Shown: positions 3,463-64,000, counted from the stretch's first letter. The stretch is DNA of 64,000 bases from an uncultured delta proteobacterium (GCA_963760795.1 CAVXEP010000030.1:160001-224000); one strand, 5' to 3'. The notes: generated from the letters alone by a model not told the origin. Made by a program: numbers and translations.

Positions 3463-4299
3463 CTAGTCGGGCCAGCGCGGGGTCGTCAGCTCGATCCGCC
3501 AGATCGGCCCCGTCGGGTATAGCGGACCCTCAAACCTGACGAACGCCGGCACTCCTTCAGTTATGATCCACGCGTGATTGTCAGGCGGCATGCGCCCGAG
3601 CAGCGTAGCGAAGAGCTTGACCCACATCCCGAGAATCGGCTTGAACACGAAGTGGGTTGCGCTTTTCGCCAAGTCGCCGATCATCACTTTCTTATCGCCC
3701 GCCGGTGTAAGCTCCAGCTGGATGAGCCGGGGCGCGGGTGTGAAGGCGACGAAGTGGACGGTCTCGCTGGCTCCTTTGGCAAGGTTCTTCGCCGCGGTAA
3801 GGACCATGCCATTATAAACGTCTGGGGGCAGATCGAGCTTGCCGTCGAGCACTTCCTCTCGGCCGTCTTTGCGGGACTTGGTTTTTACGCGGTACTTGCC
3901 GGAGACTCGATCCAGCGAGATTTCCGTGTCCTCGGTGAATGCTGGGCCGCGCTGCAGCAGCCGATAGCTCTGCATGGTAAAGACTCGTTCCTGGGTGAAC
4001 ACCACGGTCTCGTCGAATACCGACCCGTCCTTGAAGTGGAACAGCATGCGACTCTCAACCTCTCCGCCCCGGCGCGTCTGGAGGAGATCGCCCGACGCAA
4101 TGACGGCGCCGTCGACCGTACGCAGCACAATGAAACCGTGCACCGAGCCCTCGACGAATCGCACTCCGACCGGGGCCGCCGCGGCCGGACGCGGCGGCAA
4201 CACCGCCGCCACGAGAGCCAGCAAGCAGAGCACCGCCCTCATGAACGACATGACGGTGGAATCGGAAATATGTGCCCTTGTGTCCAATGTAGTAGGCAA
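3463..4299 (-). CDS. hypothetical exported protein
   Basis: 278 aa ORF with a signal-peptide-like 'LCLLALVAAVLPPRPAAA'; true start probably internal. Confidence 0.7.
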   Translation of the reverse strand: MPTTLDTRAHISDSTVMSFMRAVLCLLALVAAVLPPRPAAAAPVGVRFVEGSVHGFIVLRTVDGAVIASGDLLQTRRGGEVESRMLFHFKDGSVFDETVVFTQERVFTMQSYRLLQRGPAFTEDTEISLDRVSGKYRVKTKSRKDGREEVLDGKLDLPPDVYNGMVLTAAKNLAKGASETVHFVAFTPAPRLIQLELTPAGDKKVMIGDLAKSATHFVFKPILGMWVKLFATLLGRMPPDNHAWIITEGVPAFVRFEGPLYPTGPIWRIELTTPRWPD

Positions 4300-4520
4300 A
4301 ATTAAACTGCTTGCAACGAACCGTATAGCCGGGGTTTACCCGTCATAGGGGCGGCACTTACACTGCACGCTTGCATCCGCGCGCTCGAATCATTCTCACT
4401 AGTTCGTTAATAGTCGAGTCGTCGGCATGACGACAGCGCAGATAATAGCACAGACAACATGGTCAGGTCTTGCATTGATACATTTTGCGCGTCTTCGTTT
4501 CGATGACTCGACGACTGAGC

Positions 4521-4622
4521 TTATTGGAGCAGATCTTTAAATCTCCTCATGCTGAAACTAGTGATATCGATCCGGCTTTTGCCGTCGATCACTTGCTCCG
4601 CAAGCGCCTCGCCAATCGCCGT
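4521..4622 (-). pseudogene. 3' stub of an FAD-dependent oxidoreductase (DAO/sarcosine oxidase-like)
   Basis: Hand translation 'TAIGEALAEQVIDGKSRIDITSFSMRRFKDLLQ*'; no upstream ORF. Confidence 0.5.
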
Positions 4623-4649: not shown

Positions 4650-6488
4650 GGTTCTGCTGAAAAACCCCCTCAAGTTTTTTGTTTGTTCAGTTAAATCTAC
4701 GTTGACAAGCGACGATATCGCCTTCATCGTTTTCTCATGAGCGTAAGAGCCGTCGCTGCACAGAGAAGCTTTTATCATACCGACTATCTTGCTGGAGATC
4801 TTTTCGGTCCAGCCAATCGCTACCGGTTGTTTCGGGAAAAGATCTGGCCCAAGCTTTTAGAGCTTTCCCCGAAACTTGAAGCGTTGTATTGCGCCGAGAA
4901 CGGCCGGCCGGGGATCGATCCGGTGCTACTTTGCGGAGTGACGCTGCTCCAGTTCATGGAGAAAGCAGCAGATCGCTCGGCCACCGAGCGCGTGGTGTAT
5001 CATCTGGGTTGGAAGTACGCCTTAGATCTGGAACTGGATTACGCCGGGTTTCATGCCACGGTGTTAGTTTATTTTCGCGACCGGTTGGAAGACAACAAAG
5101 TCGAGCGGATGATCTTTGACGGGATAGTTAAGTTGCTGGTGGAGCTGGGATTGGTGAAGAGAAAGGGCAAGCAGCGGCTCGATAGCACGCATATCGTGGG
5201 GTACGTCAAGGCGATGAGCTTGTTGGAGTGCGCGATAGAGACGCTGCGCTTGGCGTTGGAGGATTTGAAAGTAAAAGTGGGGAGGAAAAAGCAGCCAGAA
5301 TTTTGGGACAGGTTGTGGGAACTGTATGTAGAGAGCAAACTGGATTGGCGGCTAAACAAGACCGAGCGCGACCGCCGCTATCGGCAGTGTGGGCAAGACA
5401 TGAGAGAGCTGCTGGAGTGGCTAGACGGAAACGATCCTAAGCTCGCTGGACGTGAAGCAGTGAAACTATTGCGGCGAGTCTTTGGCGAGCAGTTTGAGAT
5501 GGTCGACGGAAAGCTTGAGCTCGCCCCCAAGCGACCGCCTCGCGCGGTGCAGAACCCCCATGATTCCGATGCGCATTATGCCGATAAGAGGAGCAAGCAA
5601 TGGATCGGCTACAAGGTGCATGTAACCGAGACTGTCGATCCTCAACAACCGATCAAGAAAAAGGGCGAGCCCACCGACCATTTCATCACCGAGATGCTGA
5701 CCGTCGAAGCGGCCCAGGACGAGAAGGCTGGCTTGACCGAGACGCTCACAAGAGAACAAGCGCACCATGAGATCGAACCCCGGGCGATCTACACCGATGC
5801 AGGTTATGTGACCGAGCACACCTTAACGCAGGCGGAACAAAACGGCATGGAGTTATTAGGACCGACGCGTCCCGATCCTCACAAGGGACCCTACAATAGC
5901 GATGCGTTCCATGTCGATATCAACGAGCGCCAGGCGGTTTGTCCTCAGGGCAAGCTCAGCACGCAGTGCAGCCGCATCAAAGATAACTATATGGGAACCG
6001 AGTACTATCGCATCGAGTGGGGCAATCAATGCAATAGCTGTCCGGTACAAAAGCAATGTACGCGGTCCAAGAGTGGACGGAGAACTTTGGTCGTTGGACT
6101 GCGCCATGATCTGGTCGAGCAGCGGCGCAGAGAAATGAAACAGAAAGGTTTCTCCAAATCCATGCATCCGAGAAACGGGATTGAGGGAACCCACAGCGAG
6201 TTGGTGCGTGGGCACGCGATGAGACGGACGAAATATCGGGGCTTAAGCCGGGTCGGTTTATCGAATTACTTCATAGGTGCAGCTTGCAACGTAAAACGAT
6301 ATCTAAATCTACTCGCGTTTCAGATGAGAACGCCGCCTCTGAGCCCCGCTTAAGGGCGGAGCGCAGCTCATTTTCCTGGCTATGGCTTCGTTGAGGGTGA
6401 AACTTTCTCTGGCGTAACATTATTTGGCGATGACCACTGTTTACTAGCGGCGGTCGCGAATCAAATTCAGGGGTTTTTCAGCAGAACC
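4650..6488 (+). mobile_element. IS1182-family insertion sequence, complete
   Basis: 19-bp perfect terminal inverted repeats GGTTCTGCTGAAAAACCCC (4650-4668 / 6470-6488) flanked on both sides by TATATA. Confidence 0.9.
4737..6353 (+). CDS. IS1182-family transposase
   Basis: 'GRPGIDP', 'QRLDSTHI', 'GYKVH', 'DAGY', CPQG..C..C..C, 'RNGIEGT.SE..R.H.MRR.KYRG'. Confidence 0.9.
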   Translation: MSVRAVAAQRSFYHTDYLAGDLFGPANRYRLFREKIWPKLLELSPKLEALYCAENGRPGIDPVLLCGVTLLQFMEKAADRSATERVVYHLGWKYALDLELDYAGFHATVLVYFRDRLEDNKVERMIFDGIVKLLVELGLVKRKGKQRLDSTHIVGYVKAMSLLECAIETLRLALEDLKVKVGRKKQPEFWDRLWELYVESKLDWRLNKTERDRRYRQCGQDMRELLEWLDGNDPKLAGREAVKLLRRVFGEQFEMVDGKLELAPKRPPRAVQNPHDSDAHYADKRSKQWIGYKVHVTETVDPQQPIKKKGEPTDHFITEMLTVEAAQDEKAGLTETLTREQAHHEIEPRAIYTDAGYVTEHTLTQAEQNGMELLGPTRPDPHKGPYNSDAFHVDINERQAVCPQGKLSTQCSRIKDNYMGTEYYRIEWGNQCNSCPVQKQCTRSKSGRRTLVVGLRHDLVEQRRREMKQKGFSKSMHPRNGIEGTHSELVRGHAMRRTKYRGLSRVGLSNYFIGAACNVKRYLNLLAFQMRTPPLSPA

Positions 6489-6552
6489 TATATACAAGCC
6501 TGACCTTTATGTTTGGGCTCATGAGTTCGGTCACACTACGTTTTCAACGTTA

Positions 6553-6594
6553 GCAGCGAGAAGGCGATGAGATCGCTGGAGTGTTCGCGCTCAT
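6553..6594 (-). pseudogene. 5' stub of a divergent LysR-type regulator
   Basis: Frameshifted '[10 protein letters not shown](L)A', resembling 'REN.NDLIAFLAVA' LysR starts typically divergent from cupin/AKR operons. Confidence 0.35.
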
Positions 6595-6709
6595 ATATCC
6601 ATGCGAAATCTACCTACTATTCGCAGGCCGCAACTGCTACATTTTCCTTATAGGAATAAAGAGACGAGCGACTGCTTTGATTAAACGAGTCCAACAAAGG
6701 AATACGGAA

Positions 6710-8331
<1,622 letters not shown>

Positions 8332-55756: not shown

Positions 55757-57017
55757 ATGGAAAATGCTCCGGAAGAAACCACCACCGAACCCACAGGCAA
55801 GACCGCGATCTTCTCGATTGTCTGTGGCGCCCATTTTTTGAATCATTTTCAGTCGTCGATGCTGGGCGTGCTCTATCCGCTGATGATGCGCGATCTCGGC
55901 ATCGGTTTTGTCGCCATCGGTGCGATTACCGCGGTTTACGGCTTTGTCGGCAATTTTCTCCAGGCCTTTTACGGATTCATCGTGCCTTACGTGCGCCGCG
56001 GCGTGATCTTAGGCGTCGGCAACATTTTGCTTGGCATCTCGGTCGTCGCCACCGGCTTCGCCTCCAGCTACCCCTTTATTATGTTCACGCGGGTGCTCGG
56101 CGGCGTCGGCACCAGCCCGCAGCATCCGGTGGGCTCGACGGCGCTGGCGTCCTACTTTGGCAAAGCGCGCGGCCGCGCCCTGGCGTTTCACTCGACGGCG
56201 GCCAATCTCGGCAGTCTGGTCGCACCGATCGTCGCCGCGGTGCTGGTGGCTCATATAGGTTGGCGCGCGATCTTTTGGATCGTCGGTATTCCCAGCATAC
56301 TCATGGGCTTCGCCTGTCTGGCTCTGCGCGACACGATTCAAGCTCAACCCGGCGCAAATCCAAAAATCGAAGCTGGCGCCCATGGGTTGGGACGCTTACA
56401 AGCGCTGTCTCAAGAACAAAAACATCCTGCTGATCTCGTTGGTCTTGATGGTCGGCGGCGCTGGCCTCGGCCATGGCATCAACGAAACCTACATCGTGCC
56501 CCATTTCATCAATGACCTGAAAGTCGACATGGCCTATGCCGCCTTTCTGTTCACGCTGATTCAGGTCGGCGGTTTGCTCGGGCCCATGGCCTGGGGCTGG
56601 ATCTCCGACCGCTTTCATCGCACCCGCACGCTGCAAGTATCACTGCTGCTTTCGGCGGGCTCGACGGTCTGGCTTAGCCTGCAAGATCATGTATCCATCG
56701 GCTTGTTCGCTAACTTGATTCTCTATGGCGCGGTGGTCACTTCGCGCCAAACGTTGACTCAAGCACTGCTCACCGACGTCGCCGATGAAGACATTCTCGA
56801 CGCCGCTTTCAGTCTCTACTATTGCATCGGTTTCATCATGTCGCCGTTTTGGACGGTTCTGGCCGGCTGGCTGATGAGCACTTCGGGATTTCAAACCACC
56901 TTTGGCGTTATCTCTTGTTCCTATTTTCTGGGCATGACGTTGCTCCTCTTCTTCCGCGAACCGGTGAAGAAGTTAAGCCCGCTGAGGGCCGGAGCCGGCG
57001 CGTTCGTAAAGCGATAA
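55757..57017 (+). CDS. MFS transporter (Fsr-like), +1 frameshift near 56360-56381
   Basis: 'HFLNH', 'QHPVG', 'RGRALAFH' in ORF1; 'GWISDRF' in ORF2; together about 12 TM. Confidence 0.8.
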
Positions 57018-57039: not shown

Positions 57040-57321
57040 ATGTTTGACTTCATCGATATCGTCATGAAAGGCGGCCCGTTAATGGCGCCGCTGCTGCTAT
57101 ATTCGGTCATCGCATTGACAGTTGTCCAGGATGTCGCGCACCAGATTGGCGAAGTCTTGGAGCCTCGGCTGACGAAGACCCCGGACCTGTTGGGACTAGT
57201 CAACATCGACGAGCAAGTCGGGCATGCTCTAGTCGTCGAAGTCTTGGATCAAGCCCGGCAAGCCGGCGGCGCTAAGATGGCCGCCGCAGTAAAGCCCAAG
57301 GAAAGCCGCAGTGAGAAATGA
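57040..57321 (+). pseudogene. ExbB N-terminus fused in frame to an ExbD C-terminus (deletion)
   Basis: 'KGGPLMAPLLLYSVIALTVV' plus 'VNIDEQVGHALVVEVLDQARQAG'; directly before tonB. Confidence 0.7.
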
Positions 57322-58135: not shown

Positions 58136-58234
58136 TTGACTATGGCTCATCGACGCAAGCCCTTAGCAACTGCACTGGCACTCAATAGCAGAGTCCCCAT
58201 ACAGTACGCGAACAATCGAATCAGGAGGTTAACC

Positions 58235-58870
58235 ATGGCCGATTCAACACATTCGTCGGGACATCACCAGCACAGCGACCACGAACATGCGCACGATCAC
58301 GATCCCCACGATTGGACATCGCCGGAGTATGTTTCCAAATGGGCTGAGGGGCAGGATCCAAAGGAAGCCAACCGCGCGCCAGCCTTTAGCCTGCTGGCCG
58401 ATACCATTCCATTCGATAAAACCGCCGCGATCAAAATCCTAGACATGGGCGCCGGCTACGGCGCGCTAAGCAAGTATTTGCTCGAACGCTTTCCCAACGC
58501 CACGGCCATTTGCCAAGACGGCTCGGAAGAAATGGCCAAGCTCGGCCGCGAGCGCATGAAACCTCTCGCCGGCAGATTCGAATATGTTCTGTGTGATTTC
58601 GGCAAACACGGCTGGAGCAAACTGGTCCCCGGGCCCTTCGAAGCCATCGTGTCGTCGATCGCAATCCACAACGTCGGCAGCCGAAGGATTATTCGCGGTA
58701 TCTACGAGGATGCCTATACACTGGTGAAGCCGGGCGGCTGTTTCTTAAACTTTGACCGATCTAATCCTCCCTGGGAAGACCATATGCATTGGCTGCGCGG
58801 CGCCGGCTTCAAAGACGTGTGCAACTTTTGGCATGACGCAAACCGGGCGGTGTTTGGCGGGTTCAAGTAA
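58235..58870 (+). CDS. class I SAM methyltransferase with a His-rich N-terminus
   Basis: 'ILDMGAGYG', 'SSIAIHN', 'KPGG.FLNFD'; 'HHQHSDHEHAHDHDPHD'. Confidence 0.85.
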   Translation: MADSTHSSGHHQHSDHEHAHDHDPHDWTSPEYVSKWAEGQDPKEANRAPAFSLLADTIPFDKTAAIKILDMGAGYGALSKYLLERFPNATAICQDGSEEMAKLGRERMKPLAGRFEYVLCDFGKHGWSKLVPGPFEAIVSSIAIHNVGSRRIIRGIYEDAYTLVKPGGCFLNFDRSNPPWEDHMHWLRGAGFKDVCNFWHDANRAVFGGFK

Positions 58871-58989
58871 CAAGAAAGTTAAGTTCGAGTGCTCGCTCCA
58901 TCGAACTCGCGTGAATCGAGTCCCCGAAGGAGTTCGCGAGACTTTCTATTTCTTGCAACAAGTCGGCGCATTTTGTATCGGCGCCGGCA

Positions 58990-59129
58990 TGTTTTTAATT
59001 TCTTACTTCGAAATTGCTTCGGCCGCGACCATCGAACTCACCGTCGCTGCGCTTTTCATCGCCGTCGAGCTAGCCCTATTAGCGCGCGGCAAAAAGCCGG
59101 CTGATCCACAAGCGCTGAAAACGGATTAA
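58990..59129 (+). CDS. small hypothetical membrane protein (start uncertain)
   Basis: Two hydrophobic stretches at the end of ORF 58752-59129. Confidence 0.3.
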
Positions 59130-59244
59130 GCCCTAATTTAACAACACCGCGAAGACTCTGCTCGAAATGGTGAGCAGTGCCGACCCTTAATCTTTATATC
59201 GCCTGTGAATTATGCTGAAATGATCCGCAAATGAGGAGCGAAGA

Positions 59245-59661
59245 ATGAGTCTACGCAATTTGATTGCGGCAGCCGCAGTGACCACCGCATTGCCGCTCCT
59301 CGCCTGGGCGCAACATGATCATTCGAAGGGCGATCAGGCACCGGCGAAACCGGCGACCATAAAGGCGACCAAGCCCTCGCTCAAGCCTGCGGAGGGCGCG
59401 AGCGTTAAAATTATCTCGCCGACCAAGGACCAGGTCCTCAAGGGCGACAAAGTCCCAATCGAGTTCAAGCTCACCAAAGGCAAACGCGGCCACCACGCCC
59501 ACGCTTATGTCGACGGCGAACTGATGGGCATGTTCGAGAGCGCCAAAGGGACACTGAACGGAGTTAAGCCAGGAACGCATGTGTTGGAATTGCGCGTCGT
59601 CGCCGACGACCATAACACCGAGCTCGATGCCACCGACAAAGTCACTTTCACCGTCAAATAG
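59245..59661 (+). CDS. exported Ig-like His/Met metal-binding protein
   Basis: Signal peptide then 'QHDH'; 'GHHAHAYVDGELMGM', 'DDH'. Confidence 0.75.
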   Translation: MSLRNLIAAAAVTTALPLLAWAQHDHSKGDQAPAKPATIKATKPSLKPAEGASVKIISPTKDQVLKGDKVPIEFKLTKGKRGHHAHAYVDGELMGMFESAKGTLNGVKPGTHVLELRVVADDHNTELDATDKVTFTVK

Positions 59662-59894
59662 ACGCCTGTCACGCCCTGGCGCAAAGTTCAGAAGAAATGA
59701 ATCCTCACGCAAATTTCATTGACTGAAACCCTCAGACCTTGGACCTTTGCGTCCCATAGATGTCTCACGACATGCATGGCGCCGGCCCCTCGGAGATTCT
59801 TTGCCGCTGTGCAGTCTAGCTCCTTTACGGTGAAATCGATCTTGTAGTGGAGCGCAAAGTTGCGTTACAGTGAGGTTGTTTGCGTGTGTAACCC

Positions 59895-60261
59895 ATGATT
59901 TCCGCAACCAAGAACTCTGGCGCTCAGCGATTCTTAGGTTTTTTCATCGCAAGCGCCCTGCTTTTCTTTCTCGCTTACAGCGCGCCGCATCGTGTTCATC
60001 ATTCTTTCGCGCAGCCGGCAGAATCTCACGAACACGACAGCAATCCGCGCGAGCACTCGGATCGGCCGGACCCACCGGTTAATGAACCGCCGTGTGTATT
60101 TCAATCCGTAGCAGCAGGTTGCCATCTCAGGTTTATCGCTCAGGTTACTTTCGGCTCGCTCCAAGTCTTAACCGAGACGACCACCGCCCGTCGGTATTCA
60201 ATCCCGCCTTATCACTCTCGTCACCACGGCATTTGCGATCCGCGCGCCTCCCCTTGTCTAG
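59895..60261 (+). CDS. His-rich RAPP leader peptide (DUF2946/CruR-like), +1 frameshift near 60180
   Basis: 'ALLFFLAYSAPHRVHH...CVFQSVA..CH', then the +1 frame ends 'AFAIRAPPLV*'. Confidence 0.7.
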
Positions 60262-60364
60262 CTCCCGGTTCAAATTACGAAGCCATGAATTAGCCGTAGC
60301 CGAGGTCGCTGAACAGGGCGACCTTTGGCCGCGGCGAGATTCGCAACTTGGGAGGAAGGGCGCA

Positions 60365-61189
60365 ATGAATAGAAACAGCCGAATCATTTTGTTCGGATCC
60401 ATCGCTTTAATAGGATTTCAGCTTAGTCCGCTCGCAGCGCATGATGGCTGGGTGGAAATCGCACCGGCCATCGTCGAGAGAAACCAACCGGCGACAATCG
60501 CGTTGATCCAGGGGAATCACTCCAACGAACATAAAAGCTACCGCATCGCCGGCAAATGGAACGCCAACTACGTCACCCTGACGGTTGTCGAACCCAAAGG
60601 TAAACAAATTTCACTCACCGATCGTTTGTTCGATATGGGCGAAGACGAGGAGAAAATCGGCCCCAAAGGACCTAAGGGATTTCATCTCGCGCCGTTCACG
60701 CCACAGGAGGATGGGCTGTTCCAAGCCTACGCGAAGCAAGCGCGCACGGTTCAGCAGGGCGATGGTCCGAAGGTGGTCACCGTTAGAGTCGCCAAGACCG
60801 CTTTTGCCGCATTCAAAATTCCCACCATCGCCGCGGCTCGAAACCTCAAAGGCTTTGACCGCGCGATCGGCGGCGATGACGTCGTCGAATTCATTCCGGT
60901 CAACAATCCGCTGGCAGTTTACTCGGGCGGATCGATAACATTGGAACTGCGGCAACAAGGCAAACCCATCGGCGGCCAAGTCGTCACCCTGGTGCGCCGC
61001 ATCGACGGTTTCGCCTCCGTGCTCGAACGCACCACCGATGACAAAGGTAGAGTCAATTTCCCTGTGGGACCAGCGGATTCTTATCTGGCGCGGGTCAAAA
61101 TCGATGAAGAAAGCGCCCGGCCCGATGGCCAGAAGGACAAAGCCAGCTATGAGTCGACCTATGTTTTCCCGGTTTTCAATCGTCCTTAG
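60365..61189 (+). CDS. DUF4198 (NikM/CbiL-like) periplasmic protein
   Basis: Signal peptide then 'AHDGW', 'GNH', 'EFIPV.NP', 'TDDKGRVNF'. Confidence 0.8.
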   Translation: MNRNSRIILFGSIALIGFQLSPLAAHDGWVEIAPAIVERNQPATIALIQGNHSNEHKSYRIAGKWNANYVTLTVVEPKGKQISLTDRLFDMGEDEEKIGPKGPKGFHLAPFTPQEDGLFQAYAKQARTVQQGDGPKVVTVRVAKTAFAAFKIPTIAAARNLKGFDRAIGGDDVVEFIPVNNPLAVYSGGSITLELRQQGKPIGGQVVTLVRRIDGFASVLERTTDDKGRVNFPVGPADSYLARVKIDEESARPDGQKDKASYESTYVFPVFNRP

Positions 61190-61541
61190 CTTTTTGCTCG
61201 GGCTGTTTGTCATCGGCACAACCACGCCGTCGGTATGGGCGCATGCCTACCCGGCGGTTTCCTTGCCCAACAACGGCGCGACATTGAAGGAGCCACCGAG
61301 CGAAGTGCGCATTCAATTTACCGAAGCGATTGAAATGGCCTTCAGCGCCGTTACCGTCACAGGACCGAACAAAGAAGTCGTCAGCCAAGGCAAGCTGCGC
61401 AAATTAGCCGACGACACCGTCGCCATCGGCCTAAAGCCGCTGCAGGCCGGAAACTATACTGTGGAATGGCAAGTACTGTCCGTCGACACCCACGTCACTG
61501 AAGGCGTACTGCGCTTCACGATTGCACCTAGCGGAAAGTGA
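61149..61541 (+). CDS. copC: copper resistance protein CopC
   Basis: Signal then 'HAY...S.P', 'F.E', 'YTVEWQVLSVDTH'. Confidence 0.9.
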   Translation: MSRPMFSRFSIVLSFLLGLFVIGTTTPSVWAHAYPAVSLPNNGATLKEPPSEVRIQFTEAIEMAFSAVTVTGPNKEVVSQGKLRKLADDTVAIGLKPLQAGNYTVEWQVLSVDTHVTEGVLRFTIAPSGK

Positions 61542-62791
61542 ATAATGCCGTGGTCGCGTTGGAAGCTGCCATCTCGGCCATCGGTTATATCGCCCAGGCT
61601 TTGGTTCTCGGCTTTCTCGTCACCGCCGGTTATCTGCTGCCGGGAAGCGAACCGGAAGCGCTCCGGCGCACACTGGCAATGCGCGCTTGCCGCTTCCTAA
61701 TCATCTTTCTTTGCGTCTCTGTTGGCGCCTTGCTCGTCCAAGGCGCCAAACTACAGCGCGGCGAATTGCCGTCGCTCGAGATCCTGTGGCGTTATCTGAC
61801 CGCCACCCAAAGCGGTAACGTGTGGCTCATCCGTGCAGGCTATGCAGTTGCATTAGCCTTGATCGGATTTGCCATCACTCGCGGCGCGGCACGATTGCAC
61901 GGCATCCGCTGGCTCGCTCTCTTGTCGCTGCCGCTGATCGCCAGCCGCAGCTTGACCAGCCACGCCATCGCGGTCAAAACCCAAACCTCCTGGGTCGTTG
62001 CTGCGGATGCTGTCCATCTTATTGCCACCGCATTATGGGCCGGTGGATTGGTCGCTGTCCTGACCATCGTGAGAGCAAGCCGCAACCAAGCTGATCTAAA
62101 TCCCGTCTGGCTGGCGCAATTCATCAATCGCTTTTCGCGCCTCGCCTTGGTTAGTGTTGCGCTGCTATTCTGCGCCGGGCTTTATTTGAGTTGGGTTCAT
62201 GTCGGCTCATTGACGACGCTGGTGACCACCGACTCAGGAAAGGTCTTGATCGTCAAGTTAGGCTTGTTTTCCGCCATGCTAGCGCTGGGCGCGGTAAATT
62301 TCTTGTCAACCAGGCGTGCCATCCGGGACATGGCCCACTCGAATCTTAGAAACAATTCGCTAGTCGACAAGGCGACTCAGCGAATCGCCGTTGAAAGCAT
62401 GCTGGGCCTGGCGATCTTTGCCACCACCGGATATCTAACGGTGCTCCCTCCGGGAGTGCACGCGCTGCACGCGGCGCGGCGGAACGTTCCGCCGGCGCAG
62501 GCAGCGGCGTTGCAGCCGGCTCAAGGGGCAAGCGTGAAGATCATCGCGCCGGTGAATAATCAGTCCGTCGCCGGCGATCGGGTTGAGCTCCGCTTCAAGC
62601 TGACCAAAGGCCAACAAGGCCACCATGCCCACGCCTACATCGACGGTGAACTGATGGGCATGTTCGAAGGTAATCGCGGCACTTTGAATGGCATCAAGCC
62701 AGGCAAACATGTTTTGGAATTGCGCGTCGTCGCCGACGATCACCAGACCGAATTGGATGCCAGCGACAAAGTGGTCTTCACAGCGAAATGA
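61538..62791 (+). CDS. copD: CopD-family copper transporter fused to a C-terminal His/Met Ig-like domain
   Basis: 'SHA', 'HL.ATALWAGGL', 'RFSRLA', 'LIVKL', 'LGAVN'; tail paralogous to 59245-59661. Confidence 0.85.
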   Translation: MNNAVVALEAAISAIGYIAQALVLGFLVTAGYLLPGSEPEALRRTLAMRACRFLIIFLCVSVGALLVQGAKLQRGELPSLEILWRYLTATQSGNVWLIRAGYAVALALIGFAITRGAARLHGIRWLALLSLPLIASRSLTSHAIAVKTQTSWVVAADAVHLIATALWAGGLVAVLTIVRASRNQADLNPVWLAQFINRFSRLALVSVALLFCAGLYLSWVHVGSLTTLVTTDSGKVLIVKLGLFSAMLALGAVNFLSTRRAIRDMAHSNLRNNSLVDKATQRIAVESMLGLAIFATTGYLTVLPPGVHALHAARRNVPPAQAAALQPAQGASVKIIAPVNNQSVAGDRVELRFKLTKGQQGHHAHAYIDGELMGMFEGNRGTLNGIKPGKHVLELRVVADDHQTELDASDKVVFTAK

Positions 62792-62852
62792 GAATGCCGA
62801 ACCGCGGCTTGAACTTCGGTTGCTGACTGACTAGGATCTCCGGCAAAGAGAA

Positions 62853-63248
62853 ATGCAGGCCGCTAACAAAATCGCAGCTCTCACAAGGGCGCTCCATTTC
62901 GGCAGCGCTCTAGCGCTTTTGTTTTTTCTCATCGCCTCAGCGCCACACCGGGTGCACCACTTCTTCGAACAGCAGGCTCGGCACGAAGATTCGCATGTCG
63001 GCCACGCCGCCACCCACGATCATGGCGGCGAGCAACAGCACGATCATGAGCAAAAACCAGCGCCTGCCTCTCAAGCCAGTGACTGCGTCGTCCTGTCGAT
63101 GGCGCAGCATAGTCACGCCGCGCCGGTTCAGCCGTTCGAAATAGCGCTCATCGGTTCCGTCAGCCAGCAACGTCAGGAGCCACAACTGGTAGCCGCGTCG
63201 GTCTTTAGCTTGTCACCCTGTTCGCAACGCGCCCCGCCGCTTGCCTGA
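62853..63248 (+). CDS. His-rich RAPP leader peptide (DUF2946/CruR-like)
   Basis: 'ALLFFLIASAPHRVHH', His-rich linker, 'CVVLSMAQHSH', C-terminal 'QRAPPLA*'. Confidence 0.8.
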   Translation: MQAANKIAALTRALHFGSALALLFFLIASAPHRVHHFFEQQARHEDSHVGHAATHDHGGEQQHDHEQKPAPASQASDCVVLSMAQHSHAAPVQPFEIALIGSVSQQRQEPQLVAASVFSLSPCSQRAPPLA

Positions 63249-63339
63249 TCCGGCATTTTCCCTTTCTTGCAGAGAAATCTCGGCTACTCATAACGATCGA
63301 TCGCTCCGCGCACAGCGCGGCGCGGCGAATTTGCAGGTG

Positions 63340-64000
63340 ATGGCTATGAAACTCCGGTTCACACGCTCATGGTTCGCGGTGTATTTTGTGTTGATTTTTG
63401 GCTGTAGTTCGGATCTGCAAGCGCCCTCTCCAACGCAGGGCGCCAAATCGCTAAACTTCGGCGCCGAGCGGCGTCTCGGCAATGGCGAGAAAAATCCCTC
63501 CACGCCGTTTTTACGCTTCAGCCCAGATGGTCGGCTGTTCGCAGTCTGGACTGAAGACCACGACACCCCATGGCCGCAGGGCAGCCATGCCGGCGGCCAC
63601 CAACAGATGAGTGGCGACCGCGCCCCTTCGCCCATGCGCAACGCGCTGATCGCGTGGTCGAAGGACGGCGGTGAGTCGTGGTCGGCGCCGATGCGCTTGA
63701 ACCACACTGTCGAAGCCGTCCAAGGCGAAGAAAACGGGCCGAAGGTCGCCTTCACGCCGGATAATAAAGCTTTCGTGGTCTGGTCGATTCCCGGCGTAAA
63801 AGGCGACAAGACCCGCGCCAACATTCGCTTTGCAATGGAAGACGGCAAAGGCGGCTTCACACTGGCGCGCACGTTGAACGAAGCGCACGACGCTGGCCGC
63901 TTCCCGATCATCGAAACCACACCCGACGGGAATTTGTTGATCGCCTGGATCGACCGCCGTATCGATGGTCCGAAGCCGCGGCAATTGTATCTCATGAAGA
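63340..64000 (+). CDS. BNR/Asp-box (sialidase-like) lipoprotein, truncated by the window end
   Basis: Not in the ORF track; hand translation 'MAMKLRF..VLIFGC', 'SKDGGESWS', 'LIAWID'. Confidence 0.8.
   Translation, partial: MAMKLRFTRSWFAVYFVLIFGCSSDLQAPSPTQGAKSLNFGAERRLGNGEKNPSTPFLRFSPDGRLFAVWTEDHDTPWPQGSHAGGHQQMSGDRAPSPMRNALIAWSKDGGESWSAPMRLNHTVEAVQGEENGPKVAFTPDNKAFVVWSIPGVKGDKTRANIRFAMEDGKGGFTLARTLNEAHDAGRFPIIETTPDGNLLIAWIDRRIDGPKPRQLYLMK

Follow-up and report, generated by a model that had tools for sequence, protein, structure and literature searches.

The DNA analysed here, called the window, is a 64,000-nt stretch from an uncultured delta proteobacterium (GCA_963760795.1, CAVXEP010000030.1:160001-224000), and near its end it carries two small open reading frames (ORFs), ORF1 and ORF2, each of which encodes a His-rich peptide with an Arg-Ala-Pro-Pro (RAPP) motif close to its C-terminus (in ORF1 after a frame break discussed below). 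The original prediction, made from the sequence of the window, had described them as two paralogous ORFs with a set of named shared motifs and had read them as metal-sensing arrest-peptide leaders. BLASTP aligned ORF1 with ORF2 at 39% identity over 88 aa (E 5e-13), and both contain a hydrophobic N-terminal segment, the motif S-A-PHRVHH, a His-rich stretch, C-V-x-x-S-x-A-x-x-x-H, and RAPP-L-x-stop. These results confirm that the observation was real and that ORF1 and ORF2 are paralogous leaders. Their features are as follows.

59895-60215, + strand: leader 1 (ORF1, ORF1-type, "type B"), residues 1-107, in frame 0, with signal anchor and His-rich linker
59985-60002, + strand: PHRVHH of leader 1, in ORF1 frame 0
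60093-60095, + strand: codon of Cys67 of leader 1, with the Arg of RAPP 49 residues further on
60216, + strand: extra base disrupting leader 1, placed by comparison with the intact orthologue P0068
60217-60261, + strand: C-terminal part of leader 1, LVTTAFAIRAPPLV followed by stop, in the +1 frame; RAPP codons at 60241-60252, stop codon TAG at 60259-60261
60247-60252, + strand: CCUCCC, both Pro codons of the leader 1 RAPP, predicted anti-Shine-Dalgarno arm
60262-60364, + strand: spacer 1, 103 nt, to the ATG of the DUF4198 gene at 60365; Shine-Dalgarno sequence GGGAGG at 60350-60355
62853-63248, + strand: leader 2 (ORF2, ORF2-type, "type A"), intact, 131 aa, C-terminus SQRAPPLA followed by stop
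62943-62960, + strand: PHRVHH of leader 2, from the ORF2 translation
63084-63086, + strand: codon of Cys78 of leader 2, with Arg126 48 residues downstream
63228-63239, + strand: RAPP codons of leader 2, then L-A-stop; stop codon at 63246-63248
63249-63345, + strand: spacer 2, 97 nt, to the ATG of the lipoprotein gene at 63346

Leader 1 also contains Cys76-His77 (the C-x8-C-H form), and leader 2 also carries His88 (the C-x9-H form). The spacing between Cys and RAPP had been given as 49-50 residues; the spacing is indeed fixed, but the value was one too high for each leader. The placement of both ORFs about 90-105 nt ahead of exported metal-related genes agreed with the two spacers. Spacer 2 begins with a pyrimidine-rich stretch and contains a GC hairpin and a Shine-Dalgarno sequence, GCAGGUG, at 63333-63339. 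The AlphaFold2 (AF2) model of leader 2, computed with an alignment, had a confident helix at residues 3-29 (predicted local distance difference test score, pLDDT, about 90) and a short helix at residues 75-86 around the Cys, and the rest was disordered (mean pLDDT 60.6).

A word-indexed protein search with ORF2 returned 68 homologues, and the query was aligned with 65 of the matches (n = 66; P0004, P0006, and P0007 were omitted as near-duplicates). F25, P31-H32-R33-V34-H35-H36, C78, and R126-A127-P128-P129 were invariant in 66/66 sequences, indicating that RAPP, PHRVHH, and the Cys are more than chance resemblances; A30, F37, F38, Q85, H88, P122, S124, Q125, and L130 were conserved in at least 90% of the alignment. 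The proposal that PHRVHH and the Cys/His residues are candidate metal ligands is consistent with this conservation. A profile made from the 66 homologues was searched over 1.84 billion cluster representatives and matched 216 clusters at E<=1e-3 and 134 at 1e-10, of which the best 150 of the 216 were listed, and motif counts were made over 211 proteins. PHR[VIL]HH was present in 193 of the 211, RAPP in 195, and both in 178, so the conservation of RAPP among homologues, on which the original prediction had staked itself, was found. In 160 of the 195 RAPP-bearing proteins, RAPP is followed by exactly two residues. Cys and Arg are 48 residues apart in 156 proteins, 49 apart in 21, and 47 apart in 1. 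With a looser PHxVHH pattern, 189/211 proteins had both motifs, and these comprised 109 with C-x9-H (type A, ORF2-like), 53 with C-x8-C (type B, ORF1-like), and 27 others. In all 162 type A and type B homologues, the 18 residues preceding PHRVHH were at least 83% uncharged.

ORF2 matched the Pfam family DUF2946 (PF11162) over its full length, with residues 20-129 on profile positions 6-117 of 117, at 15.5 bits (E 0.029), under the gathering cut-off of 23.7 bits. This comparison, which the original prediction had proposed, supports DUF2946-like leaders through a full-length, sub-threshold match. A PF11162 match at E<=1 was obtained for 43 of the 66 members (best 7e-4), and among the nearest neighbours in the language-model search (Atlas), 11/30 were DUF2946 clusters (score 0.96). 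ORF1 in frame 0 gave no PF11162 match in the Pfam search, and neither leader gave a match in NCBIfam. DUF2946 proteins carry a conserved CXXC motif (Roy et al. 2022), and the distance from the Cys motif to RAPP is constant to within 1-2 residues (PMC9426467). The C-terminal RAPP (66/66; 195/211), the Cys-RAPP spacing, and a predicted N-terminal export anchor are all present in the family described here, whereas the Pfam score falls short and CxxC is absent. As had been noted for the two ORFs, the leaders lack CxxC: C..C occurs in 1/178 homologues bearing PHRVHH and RAPP, and a single invariant Cys replaces CxxC in the 66-sequence alignment. To judge from these comparisons, the family is probably a distant DUF2946 relative built on the same plan, a divergent Cys/His branch of the CruR/CutF-type leaders. 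The term "new subfamily" therefore holds relative to Pfam, where the match is below threshold, but not as an idea, which had already been published (PMC9973294).

CruR (Bp2923) of Bordetella pertussis is likewise a small exported leader with RAPP a few residues ahead of the stop codon. In CruR, C90 and R139 are 49 residues apart (PMC9426467), compared with 48 in ORF2 and 49 in ORF1, and in both cases same-strand metal-homeostasis genes are headed with a spacer of about 100-160 nt. CruR is described as poorly structured, and the leaders here are predicted to be mostly disordered. CruR arrest and RAPP stalling have been demonstrated in vitro; in the arrest state, the P site holds the first of the two Pro codons and the A site the second (PMC12992588). 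Unlike CruR, the leaders here have one Cys followed by His (C-x9-H) or Cys-His (C-x8-C-H) instead of CxxC, an invariant PHRVHH just past the anchor together with a His-rich linker, and downstream genes other than a TonB-dependent receptor. In addition, the output of CruR is through termination by Rho, while that of type B here appears translational.

The definition of CutF-like proteins (Ozturk et al. 2023) comprises fewer than 150 aa, a signal peptide, PP in the last 15 residues, and a same-strand gene no more than 1000 nt downstream. ORF2 falls within it (131 aa, PP at 128-129 of 131, spacer 97 nt), as does ORF1 read through its frameshift (121 aa, spacer 103 nt). CutF-like proteins form 29 clusters with Cys, His, or mixed sites (PMC9973294). 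The model for CutF of Rhodobacter capsulatus, in which a paused ribosome exposes a hidden Shine-Dalgarno sequence, is the output proposed below for type B, and a transmembrane sensing model has also been put forward for CutF (bioRxiv 10.1101/2025.02.05.636593). CutF has CxxxC and another Pro-rich end and controls a multicopper oxidase, and the leaders here differ in all three; unlike in CutF, the 5' arm of the predicted type B masking helix is the arrest codons themselves. The ApdA/ApdP RAPP/RGPP peptides share the same arrest tetrapeptide close to the C-terminus of a small upstream ORF, but they stand ahead of Sec/YidC pathway genes, whereas DUF4198/CopC/CopD and a propeller lipoprotein follow here. 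A domain-wide RAPP/RGPP survey of 2025 lists metal-related and thioredoxin-domain downstream genes, with classes that include TonB receptors, YcnI, PCuAC, PepSY, and DsbA/thioredoxin (PMC12992588); the parts of that survey consulted name neither the propeller lipoprotein nor a DUF4198-CopC-CopD module.

One scan of species-representative genomes yielded 19 further loci (L001-L019), in which the RNA between leader and next gene was compared with that of the window. For leader 1, the minimum-energy fold pairs CCUCCC with GGGAGG, the Ala-Pro-Pro codons were expected to form 5.97 of 8 pairs with the Shine-Dalgarno region, and the RAPP-codon window was the best of 463 12-nt windows (-17.0 kcal/mol). 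The first Pro codon was CCU in 8/8 type B/C loci and in 0/12 type A loci; across type B/C loci, variation was seen in the Arg codon, in the Ala codon, and at position three of the final Pro codon, and the next gene has GGAGG in 7/8 of these loci. Across the six type B loci, 4.7-8.0 of 8 Ala-Pro-Pro/Shine-Dalgarno pairs were expected, against about 0 in 8/12 type A loci. The RAPP-codon 12-mer was the best Shine-Dalgarno duplex partner among about 460 windows in 5/6 type B loci (two windows were better in L015), and in L019 it was also the best partner, via GCGCUCC/GGAGCGC. The nucleotides flanking the two arms, just 3' of CCUCC and just 5' of GGAGG, covaried, as C-G, A-U twice, G-U, and U-G twice, with a U/U mismatch once. 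The type B pairs were read by hand from the aligned tails and spacers, because the MAFFT alignment of these regions had placed GGGAGG and UGGAGG one column out of register and was set aside. At the level of sequence and predicted folding, the type B RNA evidence points to translational unmasking by a stalled ribosome.

The 12 type A spacers showed no common RNA switch or Shine-Dalgarno partner. C exceeded G in the first 40 nt past the leader stop in 16/18 type A and type B loci, a bias that is no more than a hint of a Rho site. In L005 (about 6385-6430) and L011 (about 4380-4425), a GC-rich hairpin followed by six or seven U was seen by eye 45-85 nt past the leader stop, possibly an intrinsic terminator or attenuator of a sub-lineage. 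A promoter and terminator scan of 58800-63500 gave counts no higher than in shuffled sequences, with none inside the spacers, and no useful NikR-operator inverted repeats were found upstream of nikR, p138 (a small upstream gene listed below), or leader 1.

We consider it reasonably likely that ORF1 and ORF2 each encode a cis-acting leader of the CruR/CutF type. What the sequences show is conservation, spacing, gene order, and predicted RNA pairing; that the ribosome stalls, that a metal is sensed, which metal it is, and in which direction the response goes are inferred. Each leader would be a small protein tethered to the membrane by its predicted N-terminal signal anchor. The candidate ligands would be extracytoplasmic, with PHRVHH at the membrane surface, then the His-rich linker, and then the invariant Cys followed by His or Cys-His. 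A Pro right after an A-x-A site blocks signal peptidase I, and if this rule applies, the invariant S-A-P suggests an uncleaved anchor that keeps PHRVHH at the outer surface of the membrane. The ribosome would pause at RAPP when its P site is on the first Pro codon and its A site on the next. During the pause, the Cys would lie about 50 residues from the peptidyl-transferase centre, beyond the tunnel and, by general tunnel and translocon lengths, at about the outer end of the translocon. Metal bound to the nascent chain could prolong or shorten the pause, that is, by pause induction as proposed for CutF or by pause relief as proposed for CruR, and the length of the pause would set the expression of the next gene. 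For leader 1 and type B, CCU CCC would mask the GGGAGG of DUF4198-copC-copD, and a paused ribosome would hold these codons, free the start site, and turn translation on; unmasking by a paused ribosome is the principle of SecM, MifM, and CutF. For leader 2 and type A, the output could come from an intrinsic terminator, from termination by Rho, or from masking by the pyrimidine tract that follows the stop codon.

Several observations weigh against this reading, in addition to the sub-threshold Pfam score and the missing CxxC. Some homologues lack RAPP, such as P0007 with RAPL (one of the sequences left out of the 66-sequence alignment), P0113 with RSPP, and P0116 with RAPS; RAPP is absent in 16/211 proteins, and apart from these three they are mostly truncated or run-on ORFs. 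The RAPP-codon 12-mer was the best partner in 0/12 type A loci, which have no consistent Shine-Dalgarno partner, and single-sequence folds of spacers 1 and 2 were no better than shuffles (z -1.69 and -0.80). CCUCC is inherently complementary to GGAGG, and therefore part of the type B signal comes from codon choice alone; the eight type B/C loci are also mutually related. Leader 1 is out of frame as assembled, and if the break is real, its RAPP is left untranslated. Finally, NikR and DUF4198 could indicate nickel or cobalt rather than copper. The last two points are taken up after the gene context.

A further-reaching view, which we regard as possible rather than probable, is that PHRVHH-Cys-RAPP forms a separate co-translational sensor branch with a nascent His3-Cys-type site, at least two output devices, and an undescribed copper pathway of Binatia. 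The Cys/His pair would leave the translocon as the ribosome meets RAPP, and the site formed by PHRVHH and Cys/His would set the pause. One output device would use the arrest codons as the anti-Shine-Dalgarno arm. The copper pathway would centre on the C-E-C-C/S-C-P-H propeller lipoprotein, the TlpA-like redoxin, and the Cox11-like proteins described in the next paragraphs.

The genes surrounding the leaders in the window are as follows.

51888-52580: SCO1
52996-53439, + strand: NikR regulator (Pfam; NCBIfam NikR equivalog, 175 bits vs a cut-off of 105)
59245-59661, + strand: p138, a small exported immunoglobulin (Ig)-like protein with an HHAHAY stretch, a conserved neighbour upstream of the leaders
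60365-61189, + strand: DUF4198 periplasmic protein with a signal peptide (Pfam PF10670, E 8.9e-16)
61161-61541, + strand: CopC (Pfam CopC, E 1.1e-20), whose signal peptide suggests ATG 61161 as the start codon
61538-62791, + strand: CopD membrane protein with a fused Ig-like domain at its C-terminus (Pfam CopD, E 6.6e-19)
63346-64000, + strand: beta-propeller (BNR/Asp-box) lipoprotein, cut by the window end

The Pfam matches bear out the earlier assignment of DUF4198-copC-copD and an Asp-box lipoprotein downstream of the two leaders. Mature CopC starts with His and has the D-x-H site; it scored 79.8 bits for NCBIfam copper_CopC, under the equivalog cut-off of 95. The Ig-like domain of CopD is 73% identical to the p138 protein (BLASTP E 4e-45). 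NikR heads a conserved upstream block with a TonB-dependent receptor, a major facilitator superfamily (MFS) transporter, TonB, and a methyltransferase, and this block with p138 recurs in L001-L003, L005, L006, L009, L014, L015, and L017, as far as their flanks extend. The NikR gene, to which the original prediction had drawn attention, is thus conserved in the wider locus by synteny. The loci are mostly labelled as metagenome-assembled genomes (MAGs) of Candidatus Binatia or "uncultured delta proteobacterium", with single loci labelled Limnocylindrales, Eisenbacteria, Thermodesulfobacteriota, Syntrophobacter, and Verrucomicrobiia.

In type A, the propeller lipoprotein (about 441 aa, with weak BNR/Asp-box matches) is the next gene in 12/12 loci (the window and L001-L011). 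It is followed by an AhpC/TSA redoxin (ResA/TlpA/DsbE-like) in 8 of the 11 loci L001-L011 (all except L005, L006, and L008), and Cox11/CtaG-like proteins often come after the redoxin. The lipoprotein has a lipobox and a mean identity of 77% across 13 sequences, with C-E-C-C and S-C-P-H invariant, and its model reached pLDDT 82.7, with a disordered His-rich loop at residues 78-92 (pLDDT <50); the L003 orthologue lies at 6514-7836. A fold search with this model returned only generic sialidase-like propellers (TM-score 0.45-0.63), and therefore no function could be assigned from it; the lipoprotein is a candidate metal-binding protein without a named family. In type B, DUF4198 directly follows the leader in 3/6 loci (the window, L013, and L015), and an unnamed ORF of about 316 aa follows it in the other three (L016, L017, and L018). 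CopC, DUF4198, CopD, and p138 come after this ORF in L016 and L017, and L018 ends within it. The protein of about 316 aa has a signal peptide, immediately follows several type B/C leaders (L016 1671-2618; L012 6457-7398; L018 3592-3822), and gave no Pfam or NCBIfam match. Two leaders occur in the window, and the other 19 of the 20 sources have one each within the flanking DNA covered, so use "twice in series" describes the window but is not a general feature. L001, the nearest relative, lacks the entire leader 1-DUF4198-copCD block. The junction lies within the Ig-like domain that occurs twice, in p138 (59245-59661) and at the C-terminus of CopD (62530-62791), against L001 5653-5932, and the DNA between the two copies is absent in L001, as if the block between the Ig-like repeats had been lost or gained by recombination between the copies.

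Other irregularities were seen in this neighbourhood. The TonB-dependent receptor gene (53498-55549, + strand) is split, with the frame lost at about ...HWL and regained at ...RDKDST about 100 nt further on, and comparison with L001-L003 and L014 attributed the split to two compensating indels. The MFS transporter (55757-57017, + strand) appears as two overlapping ORFs, one base short near 56382 relative to L001. A 93-aa ORF at 57040-57321 (+ strand) apparently joins about 29 first residues of ExbB to about 60 last residues of ExbD; L001 has about 750 nt extra at 3751-4560, with separate ExbB-like and ExbD ORFs, so that the window has a deletion or an assembly collapse. The S-adenosylmethionine-dependent methyltransferase (58136-58870, + strand) has a His-rich N-terminal stretch and 66-88% identity in six loci. 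Among the relatives, the L014 leader (about 5998-6003) has an in-frame stop immediately ahead of PHRVHH, and the gene downstream of the L017 leader (about 5400) has ACG in place of the ATG of its relatives, each either a MAG error or a real variant. Elsewhere in the window, a complete ribosomal RNA operon at 40909-46397 (- strand), with 5S, 23S, two spacer tRNAs, and 16S, accounts for a 6-kb stretch without long ORFs.

The metal that the leaders would sense is probably copper. This choice rests on neighbours in the loci, namely CopC with its N-terminal His and D-x-H site, CopD, the TlpA-like redoxin, the Cox11-like proteins, and SCO1. The original prediction had named nickel, cobalt, or copper; the conserved neighbours favour copper, and nickel and cobalt less so. 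DUF4198 proteins are often annotated as components of nickel or cobalt uptake, the super-locus is headed by a true NikR scoring above its cut-off, and His-rich sites suit nickel. His-only CutF-like clusters have also been proposed as nickel or cobalt sensors (PMC9973294). Sensing of nickel or cobalt instead of copper is nevertheless rather unlikely, since the genes directly gated are CopC and CopD, followed by the TlpA/ResA-like redoxin, Cox11-like, and SCO1 proteins.

With regard to leader 1, ORF1 frame 0 continues to 60293 without RAPP, and RAPPLV-stop lies at 60241-60261 in the +1 frame, which is open only from 60172; read through the frameshift, ORF1 has 121 aa. The RAPP frame is regained when a single base anywhere from 60172 to about 60240 is removed, so the earlier suggestion of one base removed near 60180 works formally. 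The orthologue P0068 (121 aa, on 17 contigs) aligns without gaps to ORF1 residues 1-107 at 83% identity and continues in a single frame as ...PPYH-LAITAFAIRAPPLA. Its ...YH-LAIT... corresponds in the window to ...PPYH (to 60215), one nucleotide (60216), and LVTT..., and this gapless alignment locates the extra base at 60216 rather than at about 60180.

The break is most likely an assembly indel, the alternative being a real recent mutation, because the assembly contains many other single-base indels. Relative to the 92%-identical contig L001, the window showed 27 gap events in three aligned segments, of which 23 were single-base and mostly intragenic. L001 cannot serve as a check on base 60216, because it lacks the leader 1 block. 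We regard it as unlikely that leader 1 is a true pseudogene in a decaying locus and leader 2 alone is functional. The two compensating frameshifts in the TonB-dependent receptor, the 1-nt deletion near 56382 in the MFS gene, and the loss from the window of the roughly 750 nt of exbB-exbD found in L001 would fit such decay; however, single-base indels are also scattered over L001, whose copy of leader 2 is likewise frameshifted, and over L015, whose leader is too, a pattern that fits assembly error. Moreover, the leader 1 tail past the break is intact, with 11/14 residues matching P0068 and the stop codon in place.

It is still less probable that the ORFs encode stable membrane-anchored or periplasmic metal-binding proteins, such as a CzcI/CopL-like chaperone or sensor, in which RAPP has no regulatory role. 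The His-rich linker and the conserved Cys/His do resemble a metal site, the signal anchor is confidently predicted, and some CutF-like proteins without the Pro motif are thought to act otherwise (PMC9973294). However, the most conserved features are RAPP and its fixed distances to the stop codon and to the Cys, which a chaperone role leaves without explanation; the peptide is mostly disordered in the AF2 model, and the codon-level selection on the type B Pro codons suggests a role at the RNA level. A programmed +1 frameshift in leader 1, for which the sole support is that a +1 shift leads into the RAPP frame, was rejected as having next to no likelihood, since P0068 is in one frame, 60213-60219 has no visible slippery or hungry-codon context, and other indels are numerous in the assembly.

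Work on CruR (PMC9426467) and CutF (PMC9973294) and the RAPP survey (PMC12992588) had already described metal-sensing RAPP leaders that carry Cys/His sites. What is new here is the PHRVHH-Cys/His ligand set, the sub-threshold Pfam position, the two downstream modules, the predicted Pro-codon anti-Shine-Dalgarno arm, and the tandem use in one locus. In the literature searched, neither "PHRVHH" nor a link of Binatia or DUF4198 with arrest peptides was found.

For cis-acting leader peptides of the CruR/CutF type, the present family would extend metal-sensing arrest leaders to a ligand set that lacks CxxC and to an uncultured lineage, represented mostly by Binatia MAGs. The Cys-RAPP distance of CruR is kept here, and this argues independently for the distance to the peptidyl-transferase centre as the parameter by which these sensors work. 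In type B, the Pro-Pro codons would double as an anti-Shine-Dalgarno arm, a compact and testable design. For annotation, the leader genes are recorded as "hypothetical", lie below Pfam thresholds, and are readily broken by indels in long-read MAGs, and they draw attention to a conserved Cys-rich propeller lipoprotein, as yet without a name, that is likely to handle metal.

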